Shown: positions 1-22,170, counted from the whole stretch's first letter. The stretch is DNA of 58,897 bases, filler included, from Dimargaris cristalligena (GCA_003614675.1; 8 parts of 8 records of this genome joined end to end with filler, not necessarily neighbours in it), one strand, 5' to 3'. Made by a program: numbers and translations. Notes: generated from the letters alone by a model not told the origin.

Positions 1-72
1 GGCGTACTTCCAATAAGTGCGAAAAATAGATAAAAAATAAAAGTAGGTAAAAAATATGGTAAGTTCACCACA
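1..72 (-). mobile_element. 5' end of LTR-like family B (TGTGGTGAAC...), cut by contig start
   Basis: Reverse complement starts TGTGGTGAACTTACC. It matches 7228-7296 with one mismatch and 1416-1487 with a few transitions. Confidence 0.75.
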
Positions 73-615
73 AAGTGTACCTGATGCATGTCCCTTGCCT
101 ATACCTGCACTTGGCCTTTTATTATAATGGGCTAGAAATAAGACCAGGTACCACAGGATGGACAGGACTTCAAAGGATAGGAATGGGTTTATTAGACTAA
201 ATATCAGAATAAGATAAAACAAAAGAGAAGTTGCAAGCTAAAGAGCAAGCTGTGGGGGAACAGTTGGGGTTATATCCAAACTCAAGGGGCAGGGGAAGAA
301 TAATGACAAATAATAAATACAAATTAGTAACTAGATAATAAGGGGATTATAACAATATGAATAAAATACAGTAGGACAATGGGTATATATTTCTATAATG
401 TTAAGTGTTAATTTACCCATTTGTTGGTATGGGTTTTTGCTTATATGGCTGGTTATTCTTTTAGTTTGAATTAACCAGTCATGACACCTTTATTGGTTAG
501 TACTATGCCTATACCTAACACCAGCAGCCTGCTTGGCCAAGTCTAAGCCCCATCTACTGTTAGAAGCCTATCCTCAGGACTCTTGATGGACTAAGAGTAG
601 TTAACCTGGGTGATA
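73..615 (+). mobile_element. 3' part of LTR-like family C, interrupted by a family A copy at 122-486
   Basis: 73-121 aligns with about 15101-15150. 487-615 aligns with 15143-15272 and 9533-9648, ending ...GAGTAGTTAACCTGGGTGATA. Confidence 0.7.
122..486 (-). mobile_element. Partial LTR-like family A (5' TGTCATGAC...)
   Basis: Reverse complement aligns along its length with about 1670-2035 and starts with the TG terminus TGTCATGACTGG. Confidence 0.75.
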
Positions 616-1173
616 ATTATTTTATTATTATTAAATTTACAACTGATCTATGCATCATGTATTACCCTTATGCCCAATCCTCTTATATCCTAGTATGCAT
701 AGCACTTGGAATTTCTATACTATTTAACTTTGCATATAAAAGACATTGGAATCCTATAAAGGAGGAATCAACAGATATCTACTCACCAAAGTATTATCTT
801 ATATTTTTCTAAGTACATCAGTGATTGTATTTTATTTATTCCCCATAGGTCTGTCCACCATCTACCATGGGTTCTGGTACCTCTAAAACTAGCTAGTCTG
901 TGTTCTTGAGTATCCCCAAAGTTGACAAGTTAGCCCCTCTACTGTGGCATTAAAGCAGCTTTAAAAGGAGAATAAGGCCATTTTCAGGTCAGTGAGCCTA
1001 CAACAGTATAGGTGGAGTCACCCAACCCTACTGATACCTCAAGAAATACTAATAAGATAGCTACTCTATCACAACTATGATCAGCAATACTATATATTAC
1101 TAGCAATAAGAATAAGTAGGAACTAGCAATGGGTTTCTTCCCTAATACAAGATTCTTAGAGAGAGATGCTGAA

Positions 1174-1415
1174 TGGGTTAACCATTCTTAATCTATCAAG
1201 AGACCCAGAGGTAGGCTTCTAGTGGCAGGGGTGGCTTAGGCTTAGTAAAGTAGGTACTGACATTAGGTATAGGTTAGGTGGTATAATCTAATAAAGACTA
1301 GATGTAATATATATACAAGGGATATGCAGGAGGTACACTTATTAGTTAGTATAAAAGGGTGGGTATACATAAGAGTTTATTAAGGTAAACTAGGGTTAAG
1401 AATAAGCAGAGGTCC
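1174..1415 (-). mobile_element. LTR-like family C fragment, reverse orientation (appears to resume at about 2286-2330)
   Basis: GGGTTAACCATTCTTAATCTATCAAGAG...AGAATAAGC aligns with about 8298-8530. 2286-2330 (CATAGGAAAGCTAATATAGT) matches about 8788-8810. Confidence 0.65.
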
Positions 1416-1669
1416 TGTGGTGAACTTACCATATTTTTACCCACTTTTATTTTTTATCTATTTTTCACACTTATCAGAAGTACACCCCTGATGAGTGAAT
1501 GAGCCCCTGCCCCTGACCAGAATGTACCCCCTACATTTACACTGCCCCTGACCTAACTACACCCCTATTCAAAGTACAGTTAAAAATAGATTTATCCCTT
1601 TCCCTTTTCCTTCTATTATTTCATATTGAATTTATTGGTTACTTGAGTATTACCTATCCTTTGTGATAA
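1416..1669 (+). mobile_element. LTR-like family B copy, older; 3' extent uncertain
   Basis: 1416-1487 matches the family B termini at both ends of contig 1. The rest is assigned only by position, up to the family A start. Confidence 0.55.
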
Positions 1670-2285
1670 TGTCATGACCGGTAAATTTGAACTATATAAA
1701 TAACCCACCATATAAGTAAAAAAACCCATATCAACAAATGGGTAAAATTAATATCCAACATTACCAAGATATATACCCATCACCCTACTATGTTTTATTT
1801 CCCAGTGTTTATTCCTCATATTATCTAGTTACTGATTTGTATCTATTAGTTATTATCATTCTTCCCCTGCCCCTTGGGTTGGGATATAACCCCAACCATT
1901 TTCCCTTAGCTTGCTCTTCAGCTTGCAACTCCTCTTTGTTTTCCTTTTCTGATATCTAGTTTAATAAATCCTAATTCCATCCTTCAAAGTCTCGCCTGTC
2001 TTATGGTACCTGGCCTCATCTTTAGCTCATCATAACAGATAACTAATATTATTATCTGGGAACTCCCCTCCCTTTCCCTCTACTTAGTCATCCAATGTTC
2101 TGGGACCGTTTCTCCCTTTCTCTATTATTCATCTATCTTTTCATTTAGACTTCCCCTTTTGAGTATAAATACTCCCCTTTGCTGCTACCTCTTGGAATAA
2201 CAAGTCTATCATCACCTTTCCCTTCTTATTATCTATTTTTTCTAATAAAGTTCAGTTTTCAAGTATTTAATTTCAGTTCTTTACA
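1670..2285 (+). mobile_element. Probable full-length LTR, family A (about 616 bp)
   Basis: Starts TGTCATGAC and ends ...TTTACA. TATAAATA near 2164 is followed by AATAAA near 2244, the usual U3-R-U5 order. Other copies at 122-486 and 7397-7490. No clear TSD. Confidence 0.65.
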
Positions 2286-2611
2286 GTGGCCATAGGAAAG
2301 CTAATATAGTATAATAATACCTATTATAGTTATGAGCCTAACTGGGCCAGATTAAGGTTGGTTAGTTAGGGTAATAGTATCATATCATTTTGGTAAATCA
2401 GAGAGGTGCGCTTCTGTTATAATTGCCTGCTATAAGCTCTCTTTTGATTAAGCCATTTGGTGAACATGAGTATAGTAAATTATTAGTAGGTGTAGGCTAG
2501 GTATAGCTTTGATATATAGCCAGTAGCTAGATAAGTGTATAGTGAGATATTTAATTAGTTGACAAAATCCTAAATAAGGATAGTTAAGTGAATAGAATAA
2601 ATATATAATAG

Positions 2612-2757
2612 GATATGGGTAAAATTTAACCCAGCTCTATAAGGTTTTAAATGATGTGTGTATAGGAAAATTTATAAGAGATACATTTTTAACCAGTAAT
2701 TTTTACCTCATCTAATGGATTTTTTGTTATACAGCCTGATTAAACCTCTCCCATATA
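2612..2757. repeat. Degenerate duplicate of 4387-4533 (relic of an unidentified gene or repeat)
   Basis: GATATGGGTAAAATTTAAC...TATAAGGTTTTAAATGATGTGTGTATAGGAAAAT...AATGGATTTTTTGTTATACAGCC aligns with GATATGGGTGAAGTTCAAC...TATAAGGTTTTAACCGATATGTGTATGGGAAAAT...AATGGATTCTTTGTTATACAACC. Confidence 0.6.
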
Positions 2758-5520
2758 TATTTTATATATGGCTCCAATATTTGTCACTCTAGTTAATACA
2801 TATCAATATTTTGGATGGGAAAGAGAGAGTGTAATATTTAGCATTTCATGCCTTTGCTAATGTTAATTATGACAATTAAGGGTAAGGAAGTGTAATATTG
2901 GTATATCTTAATCTACCTGGAGAGGAAAGTATTGGAGGCAAGGAACCTCTACTATATAGAATTGTGAGCCAGTTGCACCCCTTCTAGGTCTCCAACTGAC
3001 TTAGTTTCAATTTCCATTTGGATACAATATTTGGGTGCTATGGAGTCACACATCTGAGATTAGGAAATTTACAATGTGGAGCACAGTGAGAATAATGAGT
3101 GTCTCACATGCATTTTATCAATTGTATATTACCCAACTGTCCTTGTCCTTGGGGCTGACTTCTAAAAACCATTACAATACCATAGTCAAAAATAACATAT
3201 TAATGTAATATTTCTTTGTGTACCTGACAGTAGCTTTCCTTTCAAGGCATTTAACATAATATTACATCACTATCACAGTGATTCATCTCTCTAATGCTGA
3301 ATCAGTGTCCATATAGACAGGCTTCCTATGAATACAGCACCAAAGGGCATCTCAATAAGTAGATAGTAACTAGGATAAGTGTATGGGATTTATTTGGCTA
3401 AGCTAGATTAATGTAGGCTGAGGAGTAGACCAATCATGACCCGGTAGGATATTGATTCATGGGGACAGTACTGAAGAGCCAGCATAGGGATAGTAAGCAG
3501 CAACATTGGTGGATATCAGTTGGTATCTGGAATATTCCTCGGATCCATGATGAAGTATAGAGGTGAAATCAACCTGTTTCGGCTTTTCTGATTTTAGACT
3601 ATTGCAGTACAAAGTGTTACCATGGAAAAGATGAAACACCATGATAAAGACCTATATAGGACAACTGTGCTGAATCAGTAATTTGGTAATGGGGTGTACC
3701 CAAGTATAAATATATGTATTAAAAAAAACATTAGAATTTAATTATTAGTCATTGCCAAACCTATCCGCTTGGATTCAAGTAACATAGATTTATCAATAGT
3801 ATCCTCAGGACGCTCATACTTACCAAGCCAGCCAATATATGTATTATATTGATAACTAGAGCACTTATACAAATCTGCTAATAATATACAGGTCCTCTTG
3901 GCCAATATTACACGGCAATTTTTGAAAGCTACACTTTATTCCTTTAGTTCAATGGCACCACTGTAGTCCCAAACCTTGGATTACGTGCTGGCTCAACAGG
4001 ATTTTTGATCAATTGGCTCCAATTAAAAACTAAATAGACCCCAGTCCTTTTGTTGAAATGTGTATAATGCGACAATAGTTCTGACCAATATGGGCCCACC
4101 AAGGTTTATGAAGATTGTATTAAAAGCACCACTCAAACTCGACATATTTCTTTAGTATTACAATTAGTCACCCACAGCGGTAAGGAGTCGATTGTACCAT
4201 GGCGAATTTCAGCTGGTATACCTTGAAATTGGGGTTTTGCGCCCTCGTGTGATTAAATGGGGTAGACCTTACTATCGGAGTCCCTTGATCGAAAGCCAAC
4301 TCACCATAGTTGCCGATTAAACCAGGCATATGACCGCTCTGTCACCAGTGTGGGTAAAATTTGGCCCAGCTGTAAAAGTTTTGATTGATATGGGTGAAGT
4401 TCAACTTGGTTGTATAAGGTTTTAACCGATATGTGTATGGGAAAATCGGTGGGATGTTTCTTTTCAACCAGTAGTACTTGCCTCATCAAATGGATTCTTT
4501 GTTATACAACCTTGTTGAACAACTCCCATATGGAAATGGGTGTATAGACAGGTGATGCATTATTAACCTTCGATATCTGCCTCACCCAATAGATTTTTTG
4601 TAATATGGTCTGACCGAATCTCTTCCGTGTGCTCCTTACCCTGCGGGTCGAGTAAGAGTAGTTATGGTTCAACGATTGGCCCAAGAGTCCAGCTGATAGT
4701 CGCGCTCACCGACAATCTTAAAGGCAGTCCTTTTTTGATCATCGCAGTCTTAACTGACCGATTTTTTTATTATTTTAGTGAATAATGGGCGCCATGGGAC
4801 CAAGCAATGTCCCCATACTTTATCCTGTAGAGAATGGATTGTACAACACACCCTTCCTTCAACTGGCGCCACATCATTTTGCGAGAATCAGTGTATCCAG
4901 GAATAGGTTACTATTGATGGACCTAGGCAAATCGTGGACTATCTCGAGGTTCCGCCGACTGGGTCGACCGGGCTCATTTAGTCAGCTACACCGTGGGCAC
5001 CAATGTGTAATGCATTTTCAATATCATACCAACCCACTTAAACCTGTATTCGAAGACAATATCAAATAGCGTATTGCGTTAATCATGATTCTCGGGGTTA
5101 ATCATTTATCATTCAGTCCGCTCAACCGCTACTCCCGGTGTTAGTGGCATTCGAGAAAATCACAGCGTTTGGCTGGTGAGGGGAATTAATCGGACCCCTC
5201 TAGTCTAACCTAAATAAGGGGGATAATTAAATGTACAGCTGATTTGGGCCAAGGGATGGGGGGAGGAATGAACTTCGGCCTCCAATATTTAAATACCACT
5301 TTTGCACCACCTGGTCTCTCCAACACCACCTCCACTCACCTTAGTTATTATATTATATTGGACTGTCACACATGCCTTTTTAGCCTTTTGCGAACTCTCC
5401 AGTATTTATATAATACGATCCGTTTTTAACAGCGGCCTACCTGGAACTTCCGCTTAGTGTTCTACAAGCTACCCCGTTTTTTAATTTAACCTTTCCCTCC
5501 TCTACCAACACGTTCCCCCT

Positions 5521-5844
5521 ATGAAGGTCACTGGCGTATACTCCATGGCTCTTTTCGTTGCCACAGCTTTCCTCTTTGTAGCTCCCCCGGAGACAGCCGC
5601 CTCGGTTCCCGTTGAAGCCGAACTGCCTCCTTCAGTATCTAAACGGGATACAGTATTGCCACTCGGGGCACCCACCTTGCTAGCCCGTCGCTACCGCTCT
5701 TTTTCCTCCCGATCTGTTCGTGATTGGGGTGCCCGTTCGGTTGTCCAACAGCGATTCCAAAAGCGAGATACACGTCTTCTCAAATTTGTACCCACCGTAC
5801 TTTTTAATCGCTTTAGAGGTACAGGTGGCCGTTCAACCTTCTAA
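5521..5844 (+). CDS. Small secreted protein, 107 aa; Kex2-processed repeat-type peptide precursor
   Basis: ATG start, hydrophobic signal peptide (MKVTGVYSMALFVATAFLFVA), two KR-DT sites exactly 40 aa apart heading alignable units, and one internal RR. Confidence 0.65.
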   Translation: MKVTGVYSMALFVATAFLFVAPPETAASVPVEAELPPSVSKRDTVLPLGAPTLLARRYRSFSSRSVRDWGARSVVQQRFQKRDTRLLKFVPTVLFNRFRGTGGRSTF

Positions 5845-7227
5845 AGAACGAAATTTGGAAGTATTCCCTCGAGCCCCTGCAATGTACTCGATCCCCTCTT
5901 CTCCTTGAAATAGCCGTTTACAAGTGGTAATAGCCACGCTTTAATGATTTTGCTGGACTGCATCTCGCCACGAGTACCATTTACTATATCGGGTATTTCG
6001 AGTGATCCTATTGGTCGAAACTACACTCAATAAATACCACTGCGATGAGCTTAATTCTCATCTTGCGGTTCTTTCCTACTTCTATCTATCTTAAAATAAA
6101 CTTTATCTTTGGTCTATCTTGGATTATCATTGAGAGAATCTGCGGTTACACCAACAGATTTAATATCTACTCATTATCATATTAGTATCCAATCTCCACC
6201 TATTATTTGTCTTTGGTTTCACATAATTACCATTAATAAACAGGGGGTATTTGCAATCCCTTTATCTAGAGGCTTATGCTAGAGTTACGTATCTATCCTG
6301 TTGTCTAGTTAATAGGCCAAATCAATGACCCCCGAATAATAATATTTACAACTTGTGTAGAAATCCCAATTAGTGAACACATTTTGTAACTATAGTACCG
6401 AATTTCAGTACACTTCGAATGGTATAATTTAATAACATATTGTCGCCGGCCATTTACGATAATTGATTACAAATATATGGACCAGTTCACTCGAGCAGCT
6501 CCATCTGGATCAAAATATTAGCAGTTGTTTATTTATTTTTTGTTAAGGATTAAAAGAAGGGGGGAACGCTGAGCGAATCAGCCTCATTGGTTTAACGAAT
6601 GAATCCACCATGGGCTGCACCCCCCAACTACATAACTATAGCATGACGATGTCCTGGGTTGACGAAAACATAGCGTCTCTAAGAGACCCAAGCTCTAAAA
6701 CCCATATTACTATCTCTGACAACCGCTATGAAAATAGAGGACGGGCTTGCCAGCCCAGGCCACCTATTTATATGTGATACTTGACTCCAGGGTCTCCCAA
6801 GACTTTCCTTAGAATGCAGGCGACTGGAGAGTCAGAATAAATACTGCTCTCCTACAAGTGGTACTCCAATAGTGGTTATTCTCAGTGCCCCCGACATCAA
6901 TAAGTAGTGGTAAACCAGATGGAAGAATTACTTGACATTTAGTAATGGGTGATGGAAAGGGAGGGCATCAAATGGTGGTTTTTATAGGATAAATTCTACA
7001 GGAAATGGAGATGTGCACATAAGTGTGGGTTGGTGATGAAACAAAAAATAACAAAGAAGCTACAAGATATATTGAATAAGCCAGCCAGCCCTAATATCCC
7101 CACTTGATTATTTTTTTAGAACCTAATGTAGGTGAAATCCAGAACAACTGTATAGAACCCCAGCAATTGGTGTTTTTTGATCCAGTTCATCTCACCATAC
7201 CCAACAGTTGTCTTGGTATATGACTAG

Positions 7228-7296
7228 TGTGGTGAACTTACCACATTTTTTACCTACTTTTATTTTTTATCTATTTTTCGCACTTATTGGAAGTAC
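7228..7296 (+). mobile_element. 5' end of LTR-like family B, cut by contig end
   Basis: Near-identical to the reverse complement of 4-72. Confidence 0.75.
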
Positions 7297-7396
7297 NNNN
7301 NNNNNNNNNNNNNNNNNNNNNNNNNNNNNNNNNNNNNNNNTTAATTAATTAANNNNNNNNNNNNNNNNNNNNNNNNNNNNNNNNNNNNNNNNNNNN
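7297..7396. other. Artificial contig-join spacer
   Basis: 44 N + TTAATTAATTAA (stops in all six frames) + 44 N. Confidence 0.98.
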
Positions 7397-7490
7397 ATAA
7401 TGTTAAATATTAATTTTACCCATTTATTGGTATGGGTTTTTTACTTATATGGCTGGTTATTCTTGTAGTTCGAATTAACCAGTCATGACA
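7397..7490 (-). mobile_element. 5' end of LTR-like family A
   Basis: Matches about 396-486 and ends ...AACCAGTCATGACA. Confidence 0.75.
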
Positions 7491-8130
7491 TGGGGGGAGG
7501 TTACTACTAAGACTAGGGTAAGGTAAAATAGGCCAATTGGACAGCCATTAAGGACCTGGAAGACTCTAAAGGTAACCAGAAGAGTCTTTGGATTGTTAAG
7601 CAGTAAATTTTATGAGTGGACTATAGCTATGGTGGTTTAAATAACATAGATTTATTATATGGATAAAGTAAATAAGTGGTAATGAAGATACTGGTGATTG
7701 GATAATTAATAAGTGAGTGGGGTTGATAGTTATCTAAGGAGCTCTGCCTTAGCAGACTATTCCTTCCTTTTTATATTGGAGAATATACATAGGCCAAGTC
7801 AGGATATTGTGGTCACAGTAATGTCAGGTTCTCCTCTAGGGGGGGTCATTCCTAAATGGAGGGGGTTCCACCCTAGCTGTATGTGTGTCACCTTGTTCTC
7901 CTTAGTCCATTGCCAGTGCCATAGTCAGTTTGGCATTGATAGGATCAACACCTGAGTAATTGGTGTGAAGAGGCAGAGTCTGGAAGGGGAATAATTATAT
8001 GGTATAGGGTGATCCCATAGTACTGGGTGTAGTCATAGGAAGGTTAATATGGTGCCATAAGGCCTAATAGGGGTAGATACAAATATGTCTAGATTAAGGT
8101 AGATTAGATGGTCCAACAAAGTTCTTAATA
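7491..8130 (-). mobile_element. LTR-like family C fragment with an insertion at about 7610-7965
   Basis: 7491-7610 aligns with about 8600-8705, and 7965-8130 aligns with about 8718-8874. Confidence 0.55.
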
Positions 8131-8289
8131 CATTAGGAAATTACTAAGGAAAGGGGTTGTGGCTTACAGCTAGACATAGGTTACTGTAGACCTCTGCTGC
8201 AGTAAGGGTTCTAGATGTTACTAAGAGTAGTATATAAAATTATTATAAAATTTTCTCCTTATTTCCCTATATAGTAATTTATTGCCATC

Positions 8290-8874
8290 TATCACTCAGG
8301 TTAACTACTCTAAGTCCATCAAGAGTCCTGATGATAGGCTTCTAGTAGTAGGTAGGGCTTAGGTTCAGCTAAGTGGGCTACTAGTATCAGGTATGTGATA
8401 TGAGTAATAACTAATATAGGCTAAGTATACTAATATATAAGGGATATATAGTAGGCATATTTTCTAGTCAGTACAGGGGGAGTAAGCATATATAGAGTAT
8501 ATTGGAGTAAACTAAGGGGTAAGAATAAGCTAATGAATCTAACTAATCCCAGTGGGGCCTAGTAATATATATGTAAGGACAACACTAGAGTAAGGTCCTA
8601 AGGGAAGAATACTACTAAGATTATAGAATAGATAATTAGACTAACCAGATGGCTGTAGGTGTCTAGAAGATTTTGAGGGTAACTGAAAGAGTCTTTGGAT
8701 CAGTACTTAAGTGATTACTGTAAAGGGGCAGAGCCCAGAAGGGGAAGGGTTAAATAATATAGGATAATTCCTTAGTACTGGGGGTAACCATAGGAAAGCT
8801 AATATAGTACTATAAGACCTCATGGGGGTGGATACTAAGGTGTCTAGATTAAGGAGGATTAGATAGTCTGATAA
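8290..8874 (-). mobile_element. LTR-like family C copy
   Basis: Reverse complement aligns with 9077-9648 over the whole length. Confidence 0.7.
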
Positions 8875-9076
8875 CTAGCTGAAATAATTTACTAGATTCC
8901 AATTTCTGATATATTTAAGTTCCTCTAGGGATAACTAGTGATTAGAAATAGGTATTTGGCCCCTGTTATTTAATGGGGTATGGAAATCCTAAAATAATCA
9001 TTAGTGCATTATCTTTTGGCCTATTACTAATATATAATAATCCCCAGTAGGACATTTCCTATAATAAAATATAGCC

Positions 9077-9648
9077 TTATTGGACTATCTAATCCTCCTT
9101 AATCTGGCCAACTTAGTGTCTGATTATATTAGGCCTTGTAGTACTATATTAAACTTCCCATAGTCACCCCTGGTACTATAGGATTATCCCTTATTATCTA
9201 ACCCTTCCCCTTCTGGACTCTACCTATTCACACTAATTACTCAAGTATTGATCCTAAGACTCTTCCAGCTCCCATCAGAGTCTTCCAGATACCTGGGGCC
9301 ATCTATTTGGCCCATTTATTTATACCTTAGACTTAGTAGTATCCACCCCTTAGGGCCTCACTCTGGAGTTATCCCTATATATATATAACTAGGCCCCATT
9401 GGGACTGGTTAGATTCCTTAGCTTATTCTTACCCCTTGGTTAACGCCAATAAACTCTATATACTCACTCTCCCTTATACTAACTAGTAAGTGTACCCACT
9501 ATATATAACCCTTGTATATAATCTTACTTATGCCTTTATTAGTTAGTACTATGCCCTTACCTAATGCTAGTGGCCTACTTAGCCAAGCCTACTGTTAGAA
9601 GCCTATATTCAAGACTCTTGACAGACTAAGAGTAGTTAACCTGGGTTA
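9077..9648 (+). mobile_element. LTR-like family C copy
   Basis: TATA-like run near 9376-9388, AATAAA near 9448, 3' end GTTAACCTGGGTTATA. Homologous to 14790-15272. Confidence 0.7.
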
Positions 9649-12339
9649 TAAAGAGTATTATATCCTATAGATTTAATATCACTAGTGAAAATTATATTGC
9701 AGAAAAAAGGCAAGGCTAAGATAGATATACATATACATATCATATAAGAATAGGTGGTACCCTCATAGCTAGTACTTGACCAGCTTCTGATACCCAAACT
9801 AAGCAGTGTATAATATAGAGCCATCAAAAGAAAATCTGGAATAGAGAGAATAAACACATAAATAGTGAGTCTGGCTGGTGGGCAAGTGCAGTTAAAGCAG
9901 CAATCTTGTGGTCACAGGGATGTTTAGTCTGTATTAATATACAATAGTTCTGTTATTATGTTGGGGCAGGGCATGGCTTCACCAGTCACCACCCCATTAA
10001 TCAGTAAGGCCCCGGCCATGCTCATAACCAATAACCCAATCACAAATGGTCAGATTAATGCACTGTAGTGTACATTGGACCCGAGGTTTTACTAATTTAC
10101 TACCTCTGGAATTGCCCCTGTTTCTTAGACTGCTAGTATACGGCACTTCCACAGCCAATCCTCATATTTACAATTAATAACATTCAATCATTCCACTATT
10201 TCTTCACCTAACTGCACCAGCAGCGGCACATGTGTGCAATTCAGAAGCCCTGTTACTCCATGACTGTATTTCCACCCCATCACCAGCCACCAGTAAAATA
10301 GATCACTGTCCTGAATTTCCTATAAGTTCGTATATATCAAGTACATTTGGTTGCATCTTCATTAATGAACTGACCCCATGCAATACCCCTCTAAAGGGGT
10401 GGCCGGATATACCCGATAATAAGGTAGTGTGCCGTTTATCCCCCAGTCCAGCCAGTTTGCTGTGGGTCTGAAAGTCTCAAAGGTGCACTGTCACCAGTGC
10501 TCTCTGTATCCCGATATTTATTACCTTCACAATCTACGTATGGGTAGGATAAACCTCATATTTAGTAGGGTAGAGATGCTATGGAATAATATGGCCAACG
10601 GGCGCAGCAATAGCCGAAGTGAAGGGTGGGGCGAGGGTGTCGGGTATTTTAACGTACAGTGGATGGGGCGGAACGGCAAAACGGCGTGGAATTAGGGGAG
10701 TAAGCCTGTTTGGGCTGTGCTTTGAAGCCCAGGTCTAGTAGGGGGCGGCAATTCGAAGATAAAAAGGCATCGTAAAAGTTTAGCCGCCTGGGCGATGATC
10801 TAGAAAATGGATCGGTATTCACCCTCGCCATGTAGGCTGGTCATTGGAAGTAAGTGTAATGGAGGTATGCGTTGGGAGTCGAAGAAAGGCGTTATATAAT
10901 CAAGACGAGGAAATCCAATCTATGGGCCATGGAAGACGCCGATCAGCCCAATGGGCCGCTCATTCTATACTCTCGGGTCATTTGCGTAGCCTATCCTCAT
11001 ACTCACAGTCGGTTGATCGATATCGATACGCGGTCGTACTTACACAAAGAAAAATTTAACTGTAAAGGTGGGCTAATAGACCAGCTTCTTACACGACACC
11101 CCCCTGTAGACGAGAAGGAATGCTCAGGAAATCGTAAAGCAAGGATCGTTGGAACAATCCAGTACCAACCGGCCGGTTGGCCCATTACTGTCTTTGTCTC
11201 TTAGGTCTAACGGGGCTGTGTGAAGGAGGGCAAACGGAGCAGCGGGGTTTCATAGTAATATTACTCTGTGAAATGAACACGGTGAGGTTATCCTGCACTC
11301 GTCGACGACTACTCGACTGTGATATACTAGTGTACTTCGCAACAGATGCCGGGTGGATTCCCAACAGTGGAGGCGATTCTGACGCTTTGTTCTCTAATAG
11401 ATTAAAGCAATAGCTGATTATTACCTACCGAGTAGAAAGAGTCGCCACGAAAGAAATTACATGTTGAATATTGGTGCAGAATAGACCAATATATCGGTAG
11501 CATATGTGTGCCGAGAGACGAAAAAGCAGCTGAGACAGGATAGCGGCAACGGAAATGATGTCCGTGAAACAGCAGCCCGGGAAATTGGCGCCCATCTCGA
11601 GCGTCTGGAGGGCAAGCTCCCAGGAGATATGCAATTGGTCTCAACCCACCGGAATCAAACATTGGCTCATTACTGGCAGCGGTGGCATCCTAGTATTCTG
11701 GAACGAGCGACGACTATTCAAACCCAACTTATAAATACCTACTCCGTGCTGCCCTTTCCCAGATATTCATCAGCTTCAAGCCCCTTTTATCTTTCCTTCA
11801 TCTGCATCGCCATTGCCATTTCCCCGGACATTTCCGCCTATTTTTCACCTTCTATTGGCTACTAAAGTCACGACCATTGTAACCCCCACCCTCCTTCTGA
11901 CCATTAAATCTAGCTAGCTCGACTAAGCCCAACGACCTCATTCACATTTTTTCTTTAGATATCCCGCGTGTTTATTATTTATAACCAGGTGACTAATTGT
12001 TAGCAGTTTTTTTGGTAATATTTAATTGAAATGCTCGTACATTGACCAGCTGTCCAGAAGATAGGCTACCGATATACACGTATATCACTCGTTTACGGAA
12101 GCATCCATCACTAATGGAAACGTTACCATGGATACTTTACTATTGTTCCGTACAACTTCCCATTCAAACCGATCCTATTAGGAATTGAACACTATAGCTC
12201 AAAGGAAGGCATGTGTCTTTATAAAGAGTATAAACAATATATACCGGCAAATATTGATAACTGATGTATAATATATATATATATATTTCCGGAAGGATGC
12301 GGTAACCATTGTAGGGCAGCAAAAAACAGTTTGTTCAAT

Positions 12340-13948
12340 TTAGAAGAATGGGCTACGACACATGGGGCAGGTGATATTATGGCTTTCACTGAACCATTTC
12401 TCCAGACAAGCCGCGTGGAATTTCTTATGGCACACGGGACACGGTTTCCCCGGCAGGGTTTTATCCCGGACGCACACAACGGAGTAGCAAATGTAACATT
12501 CTTCTACGCCATCAAATAAGTAGGCCAGGTTGCTGGCGAAAATGCAGACAATGTCGGCGAGCTGGTGGTTTTGGAGGGCTAGTGCATGAGCATTACGACT
12601 CCAGGCCCGCCAACGGGCTTCCGTGATGACGGAACTTTGGCGACATTCAATGTCGACACGTCGCACCGGGTAGCAGGGGGACAGACGGAAGGCTAGCTCA
12701 ATGTTCACATCATCTAGGACGAATTTCAAGGTGCAGAGGCGACCGGTATAGTTGACCCGGCAGTCCAGGGCATCGTATTTAGCCCGAAGTGCATGTAGTT
12801 TGGGGTGTTCATTAACCGCTAGTAACTCGCGACGGATGAGTTCGTGACTGTAGTGTTGGGTGACGAATGTTTCGAACGCCTGTTGCATGTTACGGTTTCG
12901 GATATCCTCAAACCAGTACCTGTTTGGTAGAATAAAGTTAGAAAAGTCAAAGTAGGTATGGGTATAGCTATAAATTAGTGAGCCATTCAGTTCTAGAGAT
13001 CGGATTTGTAAGAGTCAGACGGTTTCCATCGGCCACGTTCGCCCTGACCCGATAGGTTCGTTACCGGATTGAGTGATGATCCCATCAAAATTTAACTTAC
13101 CTCACCACCGCGGGAATAACAAACATGGACCGATAGAGCAAGTAAGCCGAAAAGAGGGCATAGCTGAGACCCATATCCAGTTTAAACTCCGATAAGTAGA
13201 ACTTGGTGGGTTCCCATCGGGCCAGTGGAAACGGCCGGACGCTGTGCCGGGAAATGCCCAACAGGCTGGTAATCAGGGTGAAGGCCTGGGCCAGTGTGGC
13301 GCGTTCATCCAGTTCGAGTATACGCGGGGTCGCCGCAGTTTCCGTCGCGGACAGCTGCGGCGATGACGACAATAGGGATGATGTCGATGTTGGCGACGGG
13401 CTAGTGGACGGCGAGGTGGGTCGATTATGTTTCAAAATCCCGATCACCTCAGTCGATTCGAGGCGGAATTCCCGTTGGATGGCGTCCAGATATAAATTGG
13501 TGAGAACGAGTGAACGGAGCACACTGAACTGGGTCGACCGGGCGGGCACGTCAATGACCGTAAAGTCAGGGTCGTTAATCAACGGTAAGGCGGTATCTAG
13601 GCTATACTGCAGGTGGGCCAGAATCAAGGGTCCCGCGGGTTTCGAGGCCGAGAGCGGGGATTTTAGAACCACATTGCGGGCATTAAAGTACACGTGGGTA
13701 ATTAAGGTGCCGCCGTTGGGATCGGTCAATTTAGTCAGGCAAGGGCCTAGTTCCGGGCTAGGTAGCAATTTGGTTCGGATGGCCGGTGATATGAGCCCCG
13801 CCAGGGCCCTCGTGAACTCCAGTTTTACTTTCGTGGCCTGGCCAGCGGGTTCCAGCGGTAGGTTCATATAAAAGTCCCATACCGTTTGGAGGAGGGCTAA
13901 GCCCGTCGAGGGGCACGGATAGTTGCTAGTGATGAAACTAACAAACTT
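12340..13948 (-). CDS. LTN1: Listerin/Ltn1 (Rkr1) E3 ubiquitin ligase, C-terminal region; exons about 13948/13867-13101 and 12919-12340
   Basis: C-terminal GVEECYICYSVV...CPVCHKKFHAACLEKWF...CPMCRSPFF RING preceded by an RWD-like region. A GTAAG...CAG intron at 13100-12920 joins PAVVR to YWFEDIRNRNMQQAFETF in frame. The 5' start is unresolved. Confidence 0.85.
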
Positions 13949-14689
13949 TTAAGAATGATAATGACCCCTCCTACGGTGGGCTGACCGCCTGCGATTTAGG
14001 CCATGGATAATAGTTAGTCAATTATAGAGTTGGGGCCAAAAATGATCTGTAAAGATTGAGTTGATGGATTATATCATAAAAAAGCAAAAAAAAAAAAACT
14101 CGACAGATTCCGCTCAAATAATGAAATAGGAATAAGTCTAATCGATATTATTCCCGGTGCAACTTAAATTATGGATAAATGAATAATATTAGAAACAAAG
14201 GGAGTAATAACAACCTTCTACTCATAATCACAGGCGACTTGGAACTATTAACAATTATGGTTATATATAGAACACTATCACCCTTAAGTGGCCTCAAAGT
14301 GATCCTACTGAACTATTTGTAGTCTTCTCTGGATTGTGTAGAGGGGTATATAGTGAAGCTTAGACCAATTGTATTCTGGACAAAATTGCCAATACCAGAC
14401 TAGATTAGATTACTGTGGGCTTTCACCCCATCTGTGCCTAAACGACAAACCATGAGCCAGCATTAGTGTTTGGCTTGACTATCGCCAAGTGTCGTCCAAT
14501 ACATCTTGGGGTAGTTCATGGTCGAATACCACAAAATATATTCCTTGGCCAAGTGTGGACCAAACTCTATCAGAACGAATATCGGGGTGTTGTGGCCGGG
14601 CCTGCTTAAGCTCTAATAGCATATCCCGGCCAAGCTATTTTTAGTTTAGAAAAGATGAAGAACATCACCAAATATCAGTCTTCATCTTT

Positions 14690-14789
14690 NNNNNNNNNNN
14701 NNNNNNNNNNNNNNNNNNNNNNNNNNNNNNNNNTTAATTAATTAANNNNNNNNNNNNNNNNNNNNNNNNNNNNNNNNNNNNNNNNNNNN
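14690..14789. other. Artificial contig-join spacer
   Basis: Same 44N-TTAATTAATTAA-44N linker. Confidence 0.98.
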
Positions 14790-15272
14790 ATATTACTCTT
14801 CCCTTGCTATATAACCCACTATAACTGGGCCCCAATGCTTCTCATACAATACTCCACTAGCTGATCCAACATTCCTTCTTTTCTTAGTAGAGTCTTCCAG
14901 ATACAAGCCCCCCAGTCAAGGCCCCAACCCTCGCCTCTTCTTTAGTCATCCCATTACTCTTAAGGACCCCTCGTTATAAGTAGTCCCTACATATAAATAT
15001 CTGGGCCCCTTTGGGACCAGTTCAGTTCCTTAGCTTATTTCTTACCCCCATAGTTTACCTCAATAAACTCCTTATATGCTCACCTACCATATTAGCCAGT
15101 AAGTGTGCCTGCTGCATGTCCCTTGCATTAGTCTGTACTCGTCCTTTATTGGTTAGTACTGATCCCTCCCTGATGCTAGTAGCCCACTTAGCTGAGCCTA
15201 AGCCCCACCTACCATTAGAAGCCTATCCTTGGGACTCTTGATAGACTAAGAGTGGTTAACCCAGGCAACACA
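14790..15272 (+). mobile_element. LTR-like family C, 3' portion
   Basis: ATATAAATA at about 14991, AATAAA at about 15062, ends ...GTTAACCCAGGCAACACA (CA terminus). Homologous to about 9270-9648. Confidence 0.7.
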
Positions 15273-15552
15273 ATGAGGGTGGGTTTATTAACTTAGGGAT
15301 GGATTCTGATTTAGATAACCTGGGTGTTCTACTCACTCATCTAGAACTACTGTACCCGCTTCTTGGGTTGTGCCAGTCTCTTAGCATTTCCACCCTCCAA
15401 GTCCCCCATAATCCCAAATGACGCTGATAACAATTCAAAAATGAATGTAATGAAAGCCCCCCATCAGGCGGATCCATTGGCAGACATTACAAGCGATTTA
15501 TCCGAACCATAACTCTCCATCACTGGCTCCCCACTGCTAACTCAACAATTAG

Positions 15553-17190
15553 GTCAACTGGCACCTCTCCCCAATTCCCCCTCTTCTAAGCCGGGTATAT
15601 CCCCAGCCGAAGTTCCCTCGACCATGATGATACATTCCACAACCATTACCGATCATGAATGCCAGACCATGCCAGAATTCTTCCGGGGGAAGAGCAACAA
15701 AACCCCGGAGCGCTACCTGAAAATACACAACTATATGCTTAATGTCTGGCACGAGGTTCAGCCCAACTACCTAACTAAAGTGCGGGCTTGCCAGGGCTTG
15801 CGGGACTGTGGCGATGTCAATGCCATCGGTCGAGTCCACACTTTTTTAGAGCAGATCAAGGCAATTAATCGCGATGCCATCATGTCTGCTGTATCACTGG
15901 GTAAACTGCAGGCCAAGGGGTCGGCTTCGTCGAATAAACCAGCAAACAGTGGGGTGGCCGCCACTCGGAATAACCCACCACCTTAATTATAGGAAGACCA
16001 TCCCGCCCGGTTTAGCCAGCCTCTGCCGCCGGAATGGAACCTCCATTCAATGGATTTGCATGGTCACCAGCCTTCTCCCATACCCAGTCTGGTTGGGAAT
16101 AGAACCCTGAAGAGGTTGGCGGCGACTCCGAAGACTACACTGAAACGAAAACCCAGCACCAAATGGACGACCACGAACGCATTACCTGCCCCACTGGAAT
16201 CGGCGAGGGTAAAACAGCGGACCACGAAGCAACCAATGTTGGAATCGGCTTCCGCCTACAATCCATGTTCACTCGTACTCTTGGTCAAAAGTAAGTTGTG
16301 CACACCCGGAAACATTCAATTGTCTGTACGGTAAAAGGTTATGGTAGGTTCAACTATTTTTACTTCTAATATTTTGGCCATATGCGGGTCTATCCCCTCC
16401 CAACCCCACAGGTTCTCTGTGGGATCACTTGGCAGCTTCCCTCACACCTAACCCAATAATTTCTATTTTTATATTTAATAGCATTCTCTCCGATTAGGCT
16501 GTTATGGACTTCCGCGCTCACCTGGCACAAACAGATATCATCGGACTGTTGGGTGGCACTTATGATGGCGCCAACCGTACAGTATTCATTGTAGCTACAT
16601 TTCCATGTCGTAGTATCAGTACTGGCTTCCAGGTCGATGAGAAATGGAGGCGTGATTCAATCTAGGCGGACCCTAGTGCCTAAGTGGCGTCATGAGGTCT
16701 ACATTTCAAATTCGGCTGTAACTTCACACTCTCACCTGATTTCCTTCGTTTTTTTGCTTGCTTAATTTTAGCGCAATTCCAAAATTGCAATGCTAACCTC
16801 CATGGTGTATCACCCACCTGACTCACATTTATTATCAACTATATTTCGTTTTGCTTGGCTTAGCATATGTACACCATTGCTGATGTGTGTGGACTCCTGG
16901 CCTACAACCCTAGTATACCTCCCAGTTATAACTAACCGCTTAGTATGAAATGGATCCATCCTCGGAAACTGAAACCCATGACGTATTTGCGACCCAAAAT
17001 CCATCCATGGCCAACTGGTACCACTCGCACGCGACCTTCGACCCCGACCCCTCCCTACGGGACATAGTCTGTCCGCTCCACCCGCACCGGATATTCGATC
17101 CGATAAATATTTGGCTCTTCTTTGTGGGATAGCTGTTGGACGCCACCCACGGGTGTCGAGTTCCCCTCCGCTCCCAGGCGGCGGCACTCG
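15553..17190 (+). pseudogene. MYSM1: MYSM1-like histone H2A deubiquitinase (SWIRM + MPN/JAMM) pseudogene
   Basis: SWIRM: PEFFRGKSNKTPERYLKIHNY...CGDVNAIGRVHTFLEQIKAIN. MPN exons at 16498-16632 (AVMDFRAHLAQTDIIGLLGG...FPCRSISTGFQ) and from 16944 (YEMDPSSE...WYHSHATFDPDPSLRDI). Frameshift after about 15980, in-frame TAA at 16332, frameshifts after RDI. Confidence 0.85.
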
Positions 17191-19951
17191 TGAAAGAAGA
17201 GAATGTCCTGCTAATGGATGGGGCGGCGGCTGAGGCAGATTAGGCTACCTCTCTGTTTGGCCGATTGTTGTGAATGGTCACTAACTGTCGGAAATTTTCT
17301 TCTGTAAACAACCACCAATCCAACCCTCCCATTATTGCCCTAATGATCAAAACATGCCAACTTTCCGCTCGGGATAGTAGCACCAGTTTTCCCGAACTGG
17401 GTGATTATACACTTCCCATTGCCCGAGCGCCCCATCCCTCTCCATCATTAAGTATTTCTTGTCCAACGGGTCGCCAGTATGAAAGCTAATCTTTTCATCG
17501 CCACCCGAGTTACTTGTTTCAAGGCGGGTGGCCTGACTAAGAGAACTGGGGAGAACTAAGGGAGCATAGTGGTTTCATTGGTAGTAGTAATAGTGCAACC
17601 GCTCGACGAATCCCCGGCCCGCTCTCCCTCCCCATCACGTGACAGAACTCCGGCCGGTCCCCCAACGAGCGAAGCAAGCGCGATAAGCGTTGGAACCGAA
17701 GAACCGTAATCGAAAGCGTAATTATAAATTAAGCGAATCTATGCAAAATCGAGGAAAAGTGTGTTTCAATAAAATATTTAACTTTATTACTAACATTCAT
17801 AATTCGCCCGAATTACCCTATCCCACCTCGGACTCGAACCCTACTGGTAAAATCCCCCGGCCCACCTCGACCCCGTTACAATAGTAACGATGGCGATAAT
17901 AGAAATGTCTCTGGAACCTGATGGTGTTATTATTAACTAGGAGGAAGTTTTGGTGTAACAATTCGCGACGCATTGGGTGTCACTTGTCCATTCCCTTTAT
18001 GGCAAGCCGTTCCCAGGCCAACATACTACTGTGAATGTATGGACAGCGCATACCTCTTTCTCGCACTTTCCCTCCTTGTCCCCGTTTGGGAGAGTCGGTC
18101 TTATTCGTTATCTCATTTAGGACAGGGGTGTAATAATTTTTGGGCGCGTGTTGCAACCAAGCTCGTCGGAGGGGAAGGGTCACGCTCATTTCACTCACAC
18201 CCATTTTTGCTATTTTTTCCCTATCCGGCCCCTATACCCTTAGCCGTGTGGACCTTGCGGAGCCATACCCGACTCCTTCGTCGCCATCCAGACTTCACAT
18301 GCTATTAAGCCCCCTCCGCCACAATTTTCCACTACCACGCGACCAGGCCCTTACGTTCGTGAAGCGGATGGGGCAGCTGGTCATTTTGATCAGTGTGATG
18401 AATTACACGATTGGTAGTGGCTCACGCTTTCTGCAGGATGCAACCCGAGACGATCGTCACCTTGAGTTATCGATTGTGGACCCGAGTGCGTTTGTGGTGG
18501 TGGATAAATCGCCATGGTCTAGAAAAACGATCACGGTAAGGACGGCGGCAAGGATGAAGTTGTCGGTGTCGATGCTGACCTCTCCACTGACAGTCCCTCG
18601 CCGAAAATTATGTAATGGCTTCACCAATGGAACTTAAAATAAAATAGAAATGCGAACAGCAATAACACCGCCCATCCGTTCGTATACCTTTCCACATGTG
18701 TGGTTAAGCTACCCACTGTCAATATTCTAGAGCAATGATCAACTCTCTATAATCTACCATTAGCATGTCTGTAAATACATCCATCAATCTCTGTACTTCC
18801 CTCTTTCGAAGCATCCCCCACCATCCTTCGTGAATGTACTACAACACTTGCGTATTGCGAATAAAAAGCGGGTATTCTTGGAGGCCGCTTGAAGACTACC
18901 CCTTATCTGCCACCCTTGTCATTTAAATCGCCCTAAAAAATATACATGCATCGAATAGTCGGAAGGTGCAAGAATGCAAGGGAAAGGGGGGATGTTAATA
19001 GCAGCGACACTGGAGCAGAAAGTACGGTTTGAAGACGCCACATCATATAGGGCCCTCCACGGACGGCCTACTTTAACCAATATTCTTACCTGACCTTTAG
19101 GATTGATGGGACCTTGTCCACCATCCTCATAAGAGAAACAGATAATGTCGTCCAGGGCCGCAATGGGCAATGGGAGCCAGACGTTACTACTACCTCTGGG
19201 CACTGTTAAATATGCCACCGATGGCCTTGGGTGACCAGCCAATCGTTTGGTGGCTAATACAACGGGTGGTGGTAGAGGAGAAAGGGAAGAGCGAGGCGGG
19301 ATGTGCCTAAGTGGCTAAGGCCCGTTTGAAATACACCTCCTCTCGGGTGCCACTTCCTACTTAACGATGTACAAAAAGGATTCAAAGGAATCCTATTAGT
19401 CGAAATGGCGCATATTCTCTCCTTACAGCACAGTTTTTTCTTTAATCATCATGGTATTAGGTCTCGCGAGAAAATGCGGCCTAGCTAACGAGTCCTACCT
19501 AAGCCTTCTGGGATTTAATGCATTGGGCCAATACAGTCGTACAACGGACACTCGATGAGGAATGGGAGGGGAGGGAGGGGGTTAAAGGCGGAATTAGACC
19601 TCCCCACCCGCCTACTCTGCCTTTTGCCACCGACACCCCGTTTTTCCCTCTTTACCGCCCCTCCTATCCAAATATAGCCCATTGGGCCTGGCCAGGTGGG
19701 ACATGGGTCGGTTGTATATAAACGAAACCCTATGGCCCATCCCAAATGCGGCTTCCTTATCCTATTCATATGCTAGGTTTATTGGAGCAATTCCCGCAGT
19801 ATATTATTTCTATTTCGTAGCCTCGGTCGTCTGGATTATTATCATAATTACTATTTGATTTACTACACCATATCTCCCGAGGTTTGCGTTTGGCACGATT
19901 GTAATCCGGCATTATAATCGATTTTACGACCCGTTTCCTGTTCCACTAACC

Positions 19952-20881
19952 ATGAAGTCGGTTAATGTCTTTCTAGTTCCTTTTATGGTGGCGAGTTTTC
20001 TCGCAACCGCCCAGGCCGGCCAGGGTGCCAGCACTTTAAGTGATATTAGCGACGGCTTACCGGTAACATTGCCTTCAAACGGCCTGTATAAAGGTTTATA
20101 TATCCATCACCTGCCGAATCGTAGCAGCGCTTCAATCAGCAGCTTTACCTCATCTCTTAACAGTGAGAATGGGACCGACAAGAGCAAGCTTTCCGCTGCC
20201 AGCATCACCGATATTCACGCCTTAGGTGAGGCCGACGGCACCCAATACGGTAAAGGACTTCGCGAGAGTTTCGCCAAATACAACCCTAATCCCGGACCAC
20301 CCTCCAAGGATGACCAGTTCGGGAAGGAGTCTCTTTACCGTGAGAGCGAATCCGTAAACAGACCCTCTAATGTCAGTTTCACCGATACACAGTCCTTCAC
20401 CGAGGACAACTGCTCTCAAGATAATGAAGTTTACGAGAGGCTCGCCAAATACAGAATTGATGCCTGTCCGCCCTCCAATGATGACCAGTCCCAGAAAGGA
20501 TCCGACACTGACGACGAGCCGATAGCGCCTCTCCAACCACTATCACGACAGCAACAGGCACGTACCTACCCCAATAAGCTTCACCAGCCCGGATCCTTCA
20601 GGTATCGGCCTAATGTGCTCCGTTTGGGGGAGGGCTATGCCCACCTCGACTTGTCCAACAGTCGTTTGCACATGCCCCAGCAGTACAACCACGAGCTAAT
20701 TGCAGCATCGGACGAGAATGTGGCTACGACTCAGGAAATGCTCCAGGAAAAAAACGGAGCGTCGAAGTCCACCCCCAGCTCCACGAAAATTCCAAACTAT
20801 GCCAGAGCCACGGCTTCGTCGAATGGCAAGATACGCGAACGCCACATTATTACCTCCGAAATCGTGCGTCAGGTTTACTAA
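19952..20881 (+). CDS. Orphan secreted protein, 309 aa, with an internal repeat of about 57 aa
   Basis: ACCATG start, signal peptide MKSVNVFLVPFMVASFLATAQA, long open frame, repeat units RESFAKY..PPSKDDQ and YERLAKY..PPSNDDQ. Confidence 0.75.
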   Translation: MKSVNVFLVPFMVASFLATAQAGQGASTLSDISDGLPVTLPSNGLYKGLYIHHLPNRSSASISSFTSSLNSENGTDKSKLSAASITDIHALGEADGTQYGKGLRESFAKYNPNPGPPSKDDQFGKESLYRESESVNRPSNVSFTDTQSFTEDNCSQDNEVYERLAKYRIDACPPSNDDQSQKGSDTDDEPIAPLQPLSRQQQARTYPNKLHQPGSFRYRPNVLRLGEGYAHLDLSNSRLHMPQQYNHELIAASDENVATTQEMLQEKNGASKSTPSSTKIPNYARATASSNGKIRERHIITSEIVRQVY

Positions 20882-21290
20882 ATATGGCAATGCACCGGCC
20901 GCACTGCATAGTCAGACGATTTGCCAGTGAAATGGGTACGGTTAACCATCGCCACCATTATGAACAATTAATGTTGATTTGAAAAAAAAAATACCCGCTT
21001 TCGCATGAATGTCCTACAACCGTGCGCTTTTGTAGTTATTCATAGAGATATATTCACCAATGAAGTAAATAAGTGTAAACGAAGTGGACAAGTCCATTGA
21101 GAGAAATGTGAATACATCAGGCAACTTTACATTTCAAGCGGCCGGTCCATACGGAGGGTGGAAAAACAGTAATTATAAGTATAGAGAAGAGATTAGGTTT
21201 TATTTAATATATAGAGCGGGGGGTAATACAGCCGGTGCAATAGAAAAGGGGGCACGCGGGTACTAGAAAATCAATCAAGGGTCACGAAAT

Positions 21291-21785
21291 CTAGTAAGCG
21301 TGGGCGGCAAAGACCAGAGCAGCCACGGCAGCGGCGGTCGTCAGAGCTGGGCGCTTGGAGTCAGCCGAACTGGAGTCATCATCCTCGGAGCTGGAGGAGG
21401 ACTTGGCGGCGGCCGAGGCAGAACCAGTAGCCTTGGGCTGGTTCGAAGCGGAGCCAGAGACGGTAGCCACGGAAGCGGTGGTTTGGATATGGGTGGCGGA
21501 GGAGAGGGACTCCATGGCGGTAGCGTGACCACAGAAGTTCTGCTTGGTGCTGTCGGCCAGGGTCTTCAGGTTCTTGTTCACATCGTCATCGGGGCAGCTG
21601 TCGTAGCAAGCGACCACGGAGCTCTGGGCCTGGCACTGGCAGGTGAAATCGCCAAAGGCGCAGGCGGAGAGGGAGGCACCGGTGGTGGCAAGGCAAGAGT
21701 CAACCACAGCCTGGGACGCGCACTCGGCTTGGACACTGACGGCGGCAGCGGCGGCAAGGGCAACAACAGTGGCGAAGAACTTCAT
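21291..21785 (-). CDS. GPI-anchored Cys-rich/Ser-Thr-rich cell-surface protein, 164 aa
   Basis: Signal peptide MKFFATVVALAAAAAVSVQA, 8-Cys domain (CASQAVVDSC...CQCQ...CYDSCPDD...C), S/T/A stalk and hydrophobic C-terminal GPI signal. Strong codon bias. Confidence 0.88.
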   Translation of the reverse strand: MKFFATVVALAAAAAVSVQAECASQAVVDSCLATTGASLSACAFGDFTCQCQAQSSVVACYDSCPDDDVNKNLKTLADSTKQNFCGHATAMESLSSATHIQTTASVATVSGSASNQPKATGSASAAAKSSSSSEDDDSSSADSKRPALTTAAAVAALVFAAHAY

Positions 21786-22070
21786 GCTGACGGACGGAGT
21801 ATGTGTATGTGGCAGTGGGTGTGTATATGGGTGCAGATGCAAGCTGTATTACCGGAGATGGGCAATGGGAGCCAGACGGGGACCAGAAGAGTAAAGGCAA
21901 CAAGACAGAAGGACGAAACGTAAGGATGCAAGGAAGGGGCGGAACAGGGGACTGTTTAAATAAAGGGCAGTTGAGAGACAAAGTGGTTGATTGTATATGC
22001 GCATTCAACAATAGCAGCCCAACAGGCTGAGCTATATGCTCTAATAATCAGGCCTTTTCGGGCGAATGCA

Positions 22071-22170
22071 NNNNNNNNNNNNNNNNNNNNNNNNNNNNNN
22101 NNNNNNNNNNNNNNTTAATTAATTAANNNNNNNNNNNNNNNNNNNNNNNNNNNNNNNNNNNNNNNNNNNN
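22071..22170. other. Artificial contig-join spacer
   Basis: Same linker. Confidence 0.98.

Follow-up and report, generated by a model that had tools for sequence, protein, structure and literature searches.

What has removed the CpG dinucleotides from repeated DNA in the fungus Dimargaris cristalligena (GCA_003614675.1), and was the agent repeat-induced point mutation (RIP) or the decay of methylated cytosines? We addressed this question in a window of 58,897 nt (the whole stretch of DNA that was analysed), which is made up of eight separate contigs of 7,249-7,296 bp each, numbered here in their order, and which samples several loci, not a single one. A preliminary description of the window had reported that repeats between 487 and 15272, and only the repeats, show conversion of ancestral CG to TG, CA and TA, and had proposed either a RIP-like or a methylation-driven genome defence as the cause. 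The analysis presented below suggests that deamination of 5-methylcytosine (5mC) in methylated repeats, accompanied by a weaker step at CpA, is probably the best account of the pattern; the methylation is what we infer from the substitutions.

CpG depletion and its boundaries

Six domains of the window, 9,114 bp in all, were found to contain 15 CpGs where 300.9 are expected from base composition, an observed/expected ratio (o/e) of 0.05. Outside these domains (49,083 bp) the CpG o/e is 0.81, and 500-bp windows dense in open reading frames (ORFs) reach ~0.9-1.2. Genes thus keep a normal CpG content; the preliminary description had called the intact genes CpG-rich. Domain D1 (1-3441), on the left of contig 1, carries the repeat families A-D described below and has 6 CpGs against 105.8 expected (o/e 0.06), with TpA at 1.18 and TpG/CpA at 0.98. 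Domain D2 (7397-10012), on the left of contig 2, consists of repeats to ~9650 followed by a single-copy flank; it has 2 CpGs against 89.2, with TpA at 1.44 and TpG/CpA at 0.81. The domain at the start of contig 3 (14790-15356) has 3 CpGs against 25.9. The other three, D5 at the start of contig 5 (29554-31109; 2 CpGs against 51.8), D6 (38094-38623; 1 against 15.4) and D1b, which lies on the right of contig 1 and ends in family A (6893-7296; 1 against 12.8), have the composition of plain CpG decay, with TpG/CpA of 1.16, 1.18 and 1.27 and TpA of 1.02, 0.96 and 0.87, respectively.

Low CpG might in principle reflect AT-rich spacer DNA shaped by base composition, selection or foreign origin, with no mutational targeting at all. 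The domains are indeed AT-rich (GC content 0.37), and a Pfam scan of the 53 ORFs of at least 45 amino acids within them returned no match at E<=0.1. However, 45 AT-rich windows of 200 bp taken from the remainder of the sequence, with a GC content of 0.377 compared with 0.367 in the domains, keep a CpG o/e of 0.69, as against 0.05, which shows that the depletion does not stem from a high AT content. GpC is hardly lower in the domains (o/e 0.83) than elsewhere (0.94). Moreover, copies of the repeats differ from one another at exactly those columns that carry CG, TG or CA, and since one assembled contig in each of four public sequencing runs bridges 9617-11904, from the repeat domain into genes, the join between CpG-poor DNA and genes is not chimeric. 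This explanation is already disfavoured, and we consider it highly improbable.

The copy number of the repeats was assessed by placing the assembled contigs of the four runs on contig 2 at a likeness of at least 80%. Each run contributed between 1,850 and 3,102 contig pieces at this threshold. Their summed depth over 7397-9836 is 25-250x the single-copy level, which is attained from ~9650, with bins unique from 9837. The repeats are therefore abundant, high-copy components genome-wide. Depth data cover contig 2 and establish repeat status for 7397-9650.

The loss of CpG extends beyond the repeats themselves. The single-copy flank at 9651-10012 (362 bp), which a contig joins to the genes in each run, has 0 CpGs where 12.3 are expected, and the borders of the domains are gradients over a few hundred bases. 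Since this single-copy DNA is also CpG-free, depletion is a property of repeat-seeded domains and not strictly of repeats. The repeat-restriction proposed earlier thus holds in one respect, in that genes and GC-matched AT-rich DNA are spared, but not in the other, as ~360 bp of unique sequence share the depletion.

Substitutions between repeat copies

A self-BLAST of the window returned 21 repeat pairs, 20 of which lie inside 1-15300, and the families were named A, B, C and D (a renumbering, under which the earlier "family B" example falls in family A). Family A is found at 1-72 (+), 1416-1486 (-) and 7228-7296 (-), at contig ends, with 91-98% identity; family B at 122-486 (+), 1670-2035 (-) and 7397-7490 (+), with 79-91% identity. 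For family C, self-BLAST together with a profile search located the terminal 130 nt at 486-617 (+) and the terminal 240 nt at 1174-1412 (-). Two long copies lie at 8287-8880 (-; terminus ~8290; nhmmer E 3.6e-195) and 9075-9653 (+; terminus ~9648; E 2.1e-192), and another, at 14800-15269 (+), opens contig 3 inside the CpG-poor stretch 14790-15356. A further copy at 7481-8120 (-) is preserved as two fragments (7940-8120, nhmmer E 1.5e-34; 7481-7595, E 1.4e-13), and the profile search added a fragment at 2286-2375 (-). These copies are 71-81% identical to one another and share a sharp terminus, ...GTTAACCYRGG, at which the contigs of other copies part ways (loose ends at 8292 and at 9645/9646). 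Family D comprises a copy at 2612-2756 (+) in a CpG-poor domain and a partner at 4387-4531 (+) in CpG-normal DNA.

The four family C stretches quoted in the preliminary description are all present and align as written there: CCTAACACCAGCAGCCTG at 514, CCTAATGCTAGTGGCCTA at 9561, CCTGATGCTAGTAGCCCA at 15169 and, near 8390 on the opposite strand, CCTGATACTAGTAGCCCA. The pattern that it gave for what is now family A is likewise reproduced, with GTGCGAAAA at 1-72 and 7228-7296 compared with GTGTGAAAA at 1416-1486, and CCAATAAG compared with CTGATAAG. In MAFFT alignments of families A, B, C and D and one sub-fragment, 24 of 1,254 dinucleotide columns carry both CA and TG, compared with 3-9 in seven control classes of double transition. 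A looser, profile-based alignment gave 29 of 1,163 columns against 6-18 in six control classes (Poisson P 5.5e-7 relative to the control mean). Transitions make up 500 of the 698 differences between copies in pairwise alignments within the window, and 325 of the 415 variable places in one of the public runs, X1.

In places the CG itself survives, and young copies still pair CG with TG or with CA. Two of the three family A copies retain it at a position where the third has TG, one family B column shows TG, CA and CG, and two CG cells are left at CG-derived columns in the family C copy at 14800-15269. Family D offers a polarised comparison: with the 4387 copy as reference, the copy at 2612-2756 shows 18 G/C>A/T transitions compared with 6 in the opposite direction, and both CpGs of the 4387 copy have been lost, one to TG and one to TT. 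Taken from these alignments, the columns fit an ancestral CG that would have mutated separately in every copy, on one strand or the other.

Evidence for a possible second step at CpA

Deamination of a methylated CG on the two strands gives TG and CA daughters, and by this reasoning TA needs a later change, C>T at CpA or G>A at TpG. To examine TA, 19 columns of family C were defined as a CG-derived set: they hold no state other than CG, CA, TG and TA, and in each of them either CA occurs together with TG or a CG is present. This set has 84 cells, of which 35 are TG, 25 CA, 22 TA and 2 CG, bearing out the three products named in the preliminary description. The TA cells (22 of 84) compare with 42 of 706 cells of background C>T at CpC and CpT combined (binomial P ~3e-9, although cells are not independent), and TA occurs in 14 of the 19 columns, compared with variation in 59 of the 187 C-bearing columns at CpC/CpT (P 6e-4). 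When cells were scored against a majority consensus with at least 3 copies, C>T was seen in 30 of 168 at CpA (17.9%), 15 of 280 at CpC (5.4%) and 27 of 426 at CpT (6.3%); in this sample the rate at CpA is thus not equal to background, being ~3x that at CpC/CpT. A further comparison, limited to columns with an invariant 3' neighbour, counted C/T-polymorphic against invariant-C columns as 64 and 37 before A, 25 and 67 before C, and 34 and 61 before T (odds ratio 3.75, P 2.5e-7).

Composition points the same way in family C and its neighbours only; at 8290-9650, TpG/CpA is 0.63, TpA 1.60, TpA/ApT 1.52 and (CpA+TpG)/(ApC+GpT) 0.71. CTAG is present there at 3.0x and TAG/CTA at 2.2x, whereas DNA beyond the CpG-poor domains has values of 0.61x and 0.86x; the CTAG excess fits conversion of CCGG, CCAG or CTGG to CTAG. 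No clear trinucleotide preference of the CpA step was seen (CAG 9/32, CAA 6/38, CAC 3/22, CAT 9/49). In family D, 10 of 22 sites in CpA context show C>T compared with 6 of 27 in the comparison set, which is not significant (P 0.13) but leans in the same direction. TpA-rich relics of this kind, with CTAG and TAG at 2-3x, could also be left by a two-tier repeat-directed mutator that acts on CpG and then on CpA, by dense DIM-2/DNMT1-type non-CpG methylation or by an enzymatic deamination akin to RIP, a proposal that we regard as unlikely.

We next consider whether plain CpG decay could suffice, with TA supplied by background transitions, by TA-ancestral columns that have been misread and by an inherent TA-richness of family C. 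Several observations weigh against a second step and in favour of this simpler account. The data for it come nearly all from family C, in which no column has more than five copies and the copies share ancestry. If TA is instead taken as the ancestor, the implied T>C at TpA is 0.32, an ordinary value compared with 0.36 at TpC and 0.21 at TpT, as expected of abundant TpA changing at a normal rate. Going by the control classes, TA could be the ancestor of three to five CG-derived columns. TATA stands at 2.9x o/e in family C, in TATA-type tracts, and the TpA richness of the family may be partly inherent. Three of the six poor domains (D5, D6 and D1b) show raised TpG/CpA with TpA near 1 and hence no TpA excess. 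Finally, among the 36 variable places listed for the repeats, 5 of the 8 C>T/G>A changes lie at CpA/TpG and 6 of the 12 A>G changes lie at TpA, where ~45% is expected by composition; these numbers are too few to decide.

However, plain decay does not readily explain why changes at YpA (a pyrimidine followed by A) are raised in both apparent directions. In addition to C>T at CpA, at 17.9% as against 5.4-6.3%, apparent "T>C" affects 72 of 768 cells at TpA (9.4%) compared with 8 of 194 and 12 of 386 (3.1-6.5%). A saturating CpA>TpA change with mis-polarised majorities would lead to such a result, which weakens the reading of TA as the ancestor. An elevated T>C rate at TpA, by contrast, has no cause known to us. 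Nor does plain decay account for the occurrence of TA in 14 of the 19 CG-derived columns or for the fall of TpG/CpA to 0.63 in family C, since CpG decay should enrich these dinucleotides, and family D, which is a separate pair that provides a proxy for polarity, leans toward the CpA step. We therefore think it rather unlikely that plain CpG decay acted alone. A second step, seen as CpA>TpA at ~3x in family C, which is both the oldest family and the most abundant, is modestly supported by these alignments and not yet secure. The earlier suggestion that the TA double hits go beyond passive decay stands as regards their excess over background C>T; the direction from CA to TA and the origin of the excess at CpA are what we infer.

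Tests for RIP

A RIP-like process outside Dikarya would be a homology-triggered enzymatic deamination, in which a DNMT-like enzyme attacks CpG first and CpA second. Several features are compatible with it. The mutated DNA is repeated, and family C, where depth is greatest, shows the strongest gain of TpA, with the classical RIP indices in the range of RIP at 8290-9650 (1.52 and 0.71) and the CTAG excess described above. Depletion also leaks into the unique flank, and leakage of RIP into unique flanks is known. The same classical indices give no such result in D5, D6 and D1b.

The order of targets is the opposite of the canonical one. CpG is saturated, with 2 of 84 cells still CG, and CpA>TpA amounts to ~18-26%, so that CpG has been hit far harder than CpA where RIP would strike CpA first. 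Near-identical copies, which RIP would be expected to eliminate, are plentiful: of the 3,102 X1 pieces, 137 are at least 99% alike and a further 466 are 95-99% alike, that is, 603 at 95% or more, although these pieces are short contigs and the likeness figures say nothing on repeat length. The right end of contig 2 (14473-14689), at a summed depth of ~50-130x the unique level, retains 8 CpGs (within 14443-14627) and may be a younger repeat in which CpG is not yet depleted. Strand-coherent runs of CA or TG were not detected in any of the four copies tested, where 6, 5, 10 and 6 runs were counted against 7.2, 5.7, 6.8 and 5.0 expected, in a comparison of low power. Some CpG-poor domains, moreover, lack a TpA signature.

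A composite RIP index was also tried and was rejected as a detector, being unspecific in this sequence. It is positive in 15 of 31 CpG-poor windows of 500 bp and also in 50 of the 191 other windows (26%), and it rises to 0.88 in coding DNA compared with ~1.0 in family C. Such scores in ordinary windows also count in favour of plain CpG decay.

Published surveys point in both directions. Horns et al. (2012) describe a "RIP-like" hypermutation of transposons in Pucciniomycotina that targets CpG, at TpCpG (PMC3318451), and a 2024 eLife article reports, with caveats stated, that the composite index is positive in Zoophthora radicans (PMC11105155). On the other side, the kingdom-wide screen of Badet and Croll (2025) reported repeat-directed signatures in ascomycetes only (PMC12543289). 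Taken together, canonical ascomycete RIP is not supported in this window. A genuine RIP-like system, though possible, is disfavoured, and we judge it distinctly unlikely; the RIP-like half of the earlier proposal is the weaker one, given that CpG loss far exceeds CpA loss, that near-identical copies persist and that strand-coherent tracts were not seen.

Repeat structure and composition of the window

The two long family C copies, 8287-8880 and 9075-9653, form an inverted pair that is 77% identical, with the termini facing outward and ~195 bp between them. This pair could represent a foldback element, an arrangement with long terminal inverted repeats or two nested insertions. Both ends of contig 1 consist of family A in inverted orientation (1-72 and 7228-7296, 98.6% identical), and contig 2 begins with the end of family B (395-486 corresponding to 7397-7490). 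Repeat copies and contig boundaries fall together, and repeats are evidently where the assembly was interrupted. Searches with Rfam and ARAGORN found no RNA family or tRNA-like part inside the repeats, the only match in the window being a tRNA-Arg with anticodon CCG at 51650-51723, right where contig 8 begins (50.6 bits in Rfam; also called by ARAGORN). A degenerate 27-letter family C motif was found at 3 loci in metagenomes, none of which is related to family C by nhmmer, and thus no copies were added.

The eight contigs occupy 1-7296, 7397-14689, 14790-22070, 22171-29453, 29554-36829, 36930-44198, 44299-51548 and 51649-58897. They are separated by seven identical artificial spacers of the form N44-TTAATTAATTAA-N44, at 7297-7396, 14690-14789, 22071-22170, 29454-29553, 36830-36929, 44199-44298 and 51549-51648, which a repeat search reads as a periodic "repeat family" of 7.36 kb. 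The stretch 487-15272, to which the preliminary description refers, is not one piece of genome and consequently spans three unlinked contigs of a fragmented assembly, with spacers at the first two of these positions.

Proteins of fungal type are encoded in the window, including a Zn2Cys6/Fungal_trans factor, Vps35, a listerin-type RING protein, an Hpt protein, the 30-kDa subunit of complex I and a SWIRM protein. Among the 22 of 28 ORFs of at least 150 amino acids in this window that were run against Pfam, none gave a match to a DNA-methylase family. The Vps35 ORF (52175-55249, -) is 74% identical to that of Tieghemiomyces parasiticus, 69% to that of Dispira simplex and 66% to those of two Dimargaris species, with the next matches at 53-55%. 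These matches place the sequence in Dimargaritales (Kickxellomycotina, Zoopagomycota), and the earlier assignment to an early-diverging fungus was correct. Within the ORF at 19859-20881, for which no Pfam family was found, there is an internal direct repeat (20197-20318 and 20371-20489, ~70% identical, 171-174 bp apart), which is probably a repeated protein module. Comparison with the public runs also showed a few differences. At 11158 the change in run X1 is T>C and at 11169 it is C>T, positions at which the remaining three runs match the window, and at 12542-12543 the window has AT and all four runs have TG; these are strain differences or assembly error.

Discussion

Of the two causes proposed at the outset, methylation-driven decay is the better supported. 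In favour of CpG decay are the depletion in repeats, the bias toward transitions, the columns with CA and TG, the surviving CG, three domains with a textbook signature, the spread into the flank and the direction of change in family D. The process is most likely a known one, CpG decay of methylated repeats, which the literature searched does not describe for Dimargaritales.

A sequence of events that would produce the pattern can be outlined. The domains would be non-coding relics of high-copy mobile elements that are methylated at CpG now, or were long ago, in the germ line, while genes are not. Spontaneous deamination of 5mC would then convert CG to TG when the top strand is hit and to CA when the bottom strand is hit, independently in each copy, until nearly all CpGs are gone. 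Unique flanking DNA, if methylation reached a few hundred bases into it, would decay as well. In family C, a slower second change may act on the remaining C of CA, converting it to T (or on the G of TG, converting it to A), to give TA at ~3x the rate seen at CpC/CpT. The simplest cause of this CpA step would be weak non-CpG methylation, at CpA, within the same domains.

What is known of related fungi is in part encouraging. In PMC11258239, which cites Mondo 2017, 5mC is described as lying almost solely in repeats in Linderina pennispora, a member of Kickxellomycotina, and as confined to repeats in Phycomyces. The same source reports 5mC to be scarce in Zoopagomycota overall, a lineage rich in N6-methyladenine (6mA), which weighs against methylation as the cause. 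According to PMC7862722 and PMC13297926, early-diverging fungi possess enzymes of the DIM-2 type, which are capable of methylating non-CpG sites. CDCA7F, which co-evolves with DNMTs, is listed for two Kickxellales in PMC9915587, where HELLS is also reported from this order. A literature search, with article supplements outside its scope, found nothing on methylation or repeat mutation in Dimargaritales, nor on DNMT5 together with DNMT1 in Kickxellomycotina.

If the repeats are methylated, the window would provide sequence-level evidence that a mycoparasite of Dimargaritales silences and erodes its transposons by cytosine methylation, and the sharp split in CpG (~0 versus ~1) would allow methylated domains to be read directly from a genome. 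The modest CpA excess makes RIP-like mutation outside Dikarya testable in this organism, a matter on which the articles cited above disagree, PMC12543289 answering no and PMC11105155 hinting at yes. Were the two-tier mutator real, it would amount to a RIP-like genome defence outside Dikarya.

The closest known parallel is the CpG decay of 5mC-methylated transposons in vertebrates, plants and many fungi. The pattern in D. cristalligena resembles it in the loss of CpG with gain of TG and CA, the confinement to repeat domains, the sparing of genes and the gradient into the flanks. It differs in that methylation is here a probable cause, that the loss is near total (0.05) and that one family appears to have gone further, to TA, with depletion of TpG/CpA. 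The Pucciniomycotina hypermutation is similar in its C>T changes at CpG in the repeats of a non-ascomycete fungus; it belongs to another lineage, and the present case has an additional CpA component. Here the loss is saturated in all trinucleotide contexts, with 15 CpGs left. RIP as known from Neurospora and other Pezizomycotina, which is RID-dependent and premeiotic, shares with our observations the C:G>T:A changes in duplicated DNA and, for family C, the gain of TpA, the loss of CpA/TpG and the index values at 8290-9650. In contrast to RIP, the order of targets in D. cristalligena is reversed, near-identical repeats remain and strand-coherent tracts were not found. Zoophthora radicans and other Entomophthorales, as described in PMC11105155, provide a similar hint of a RIP-type index within Zoopagomycota; that claim is purely compositional, whereas in D. 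cristalligena it is the alignment of copies that carries the weight, and it points first to CpG.

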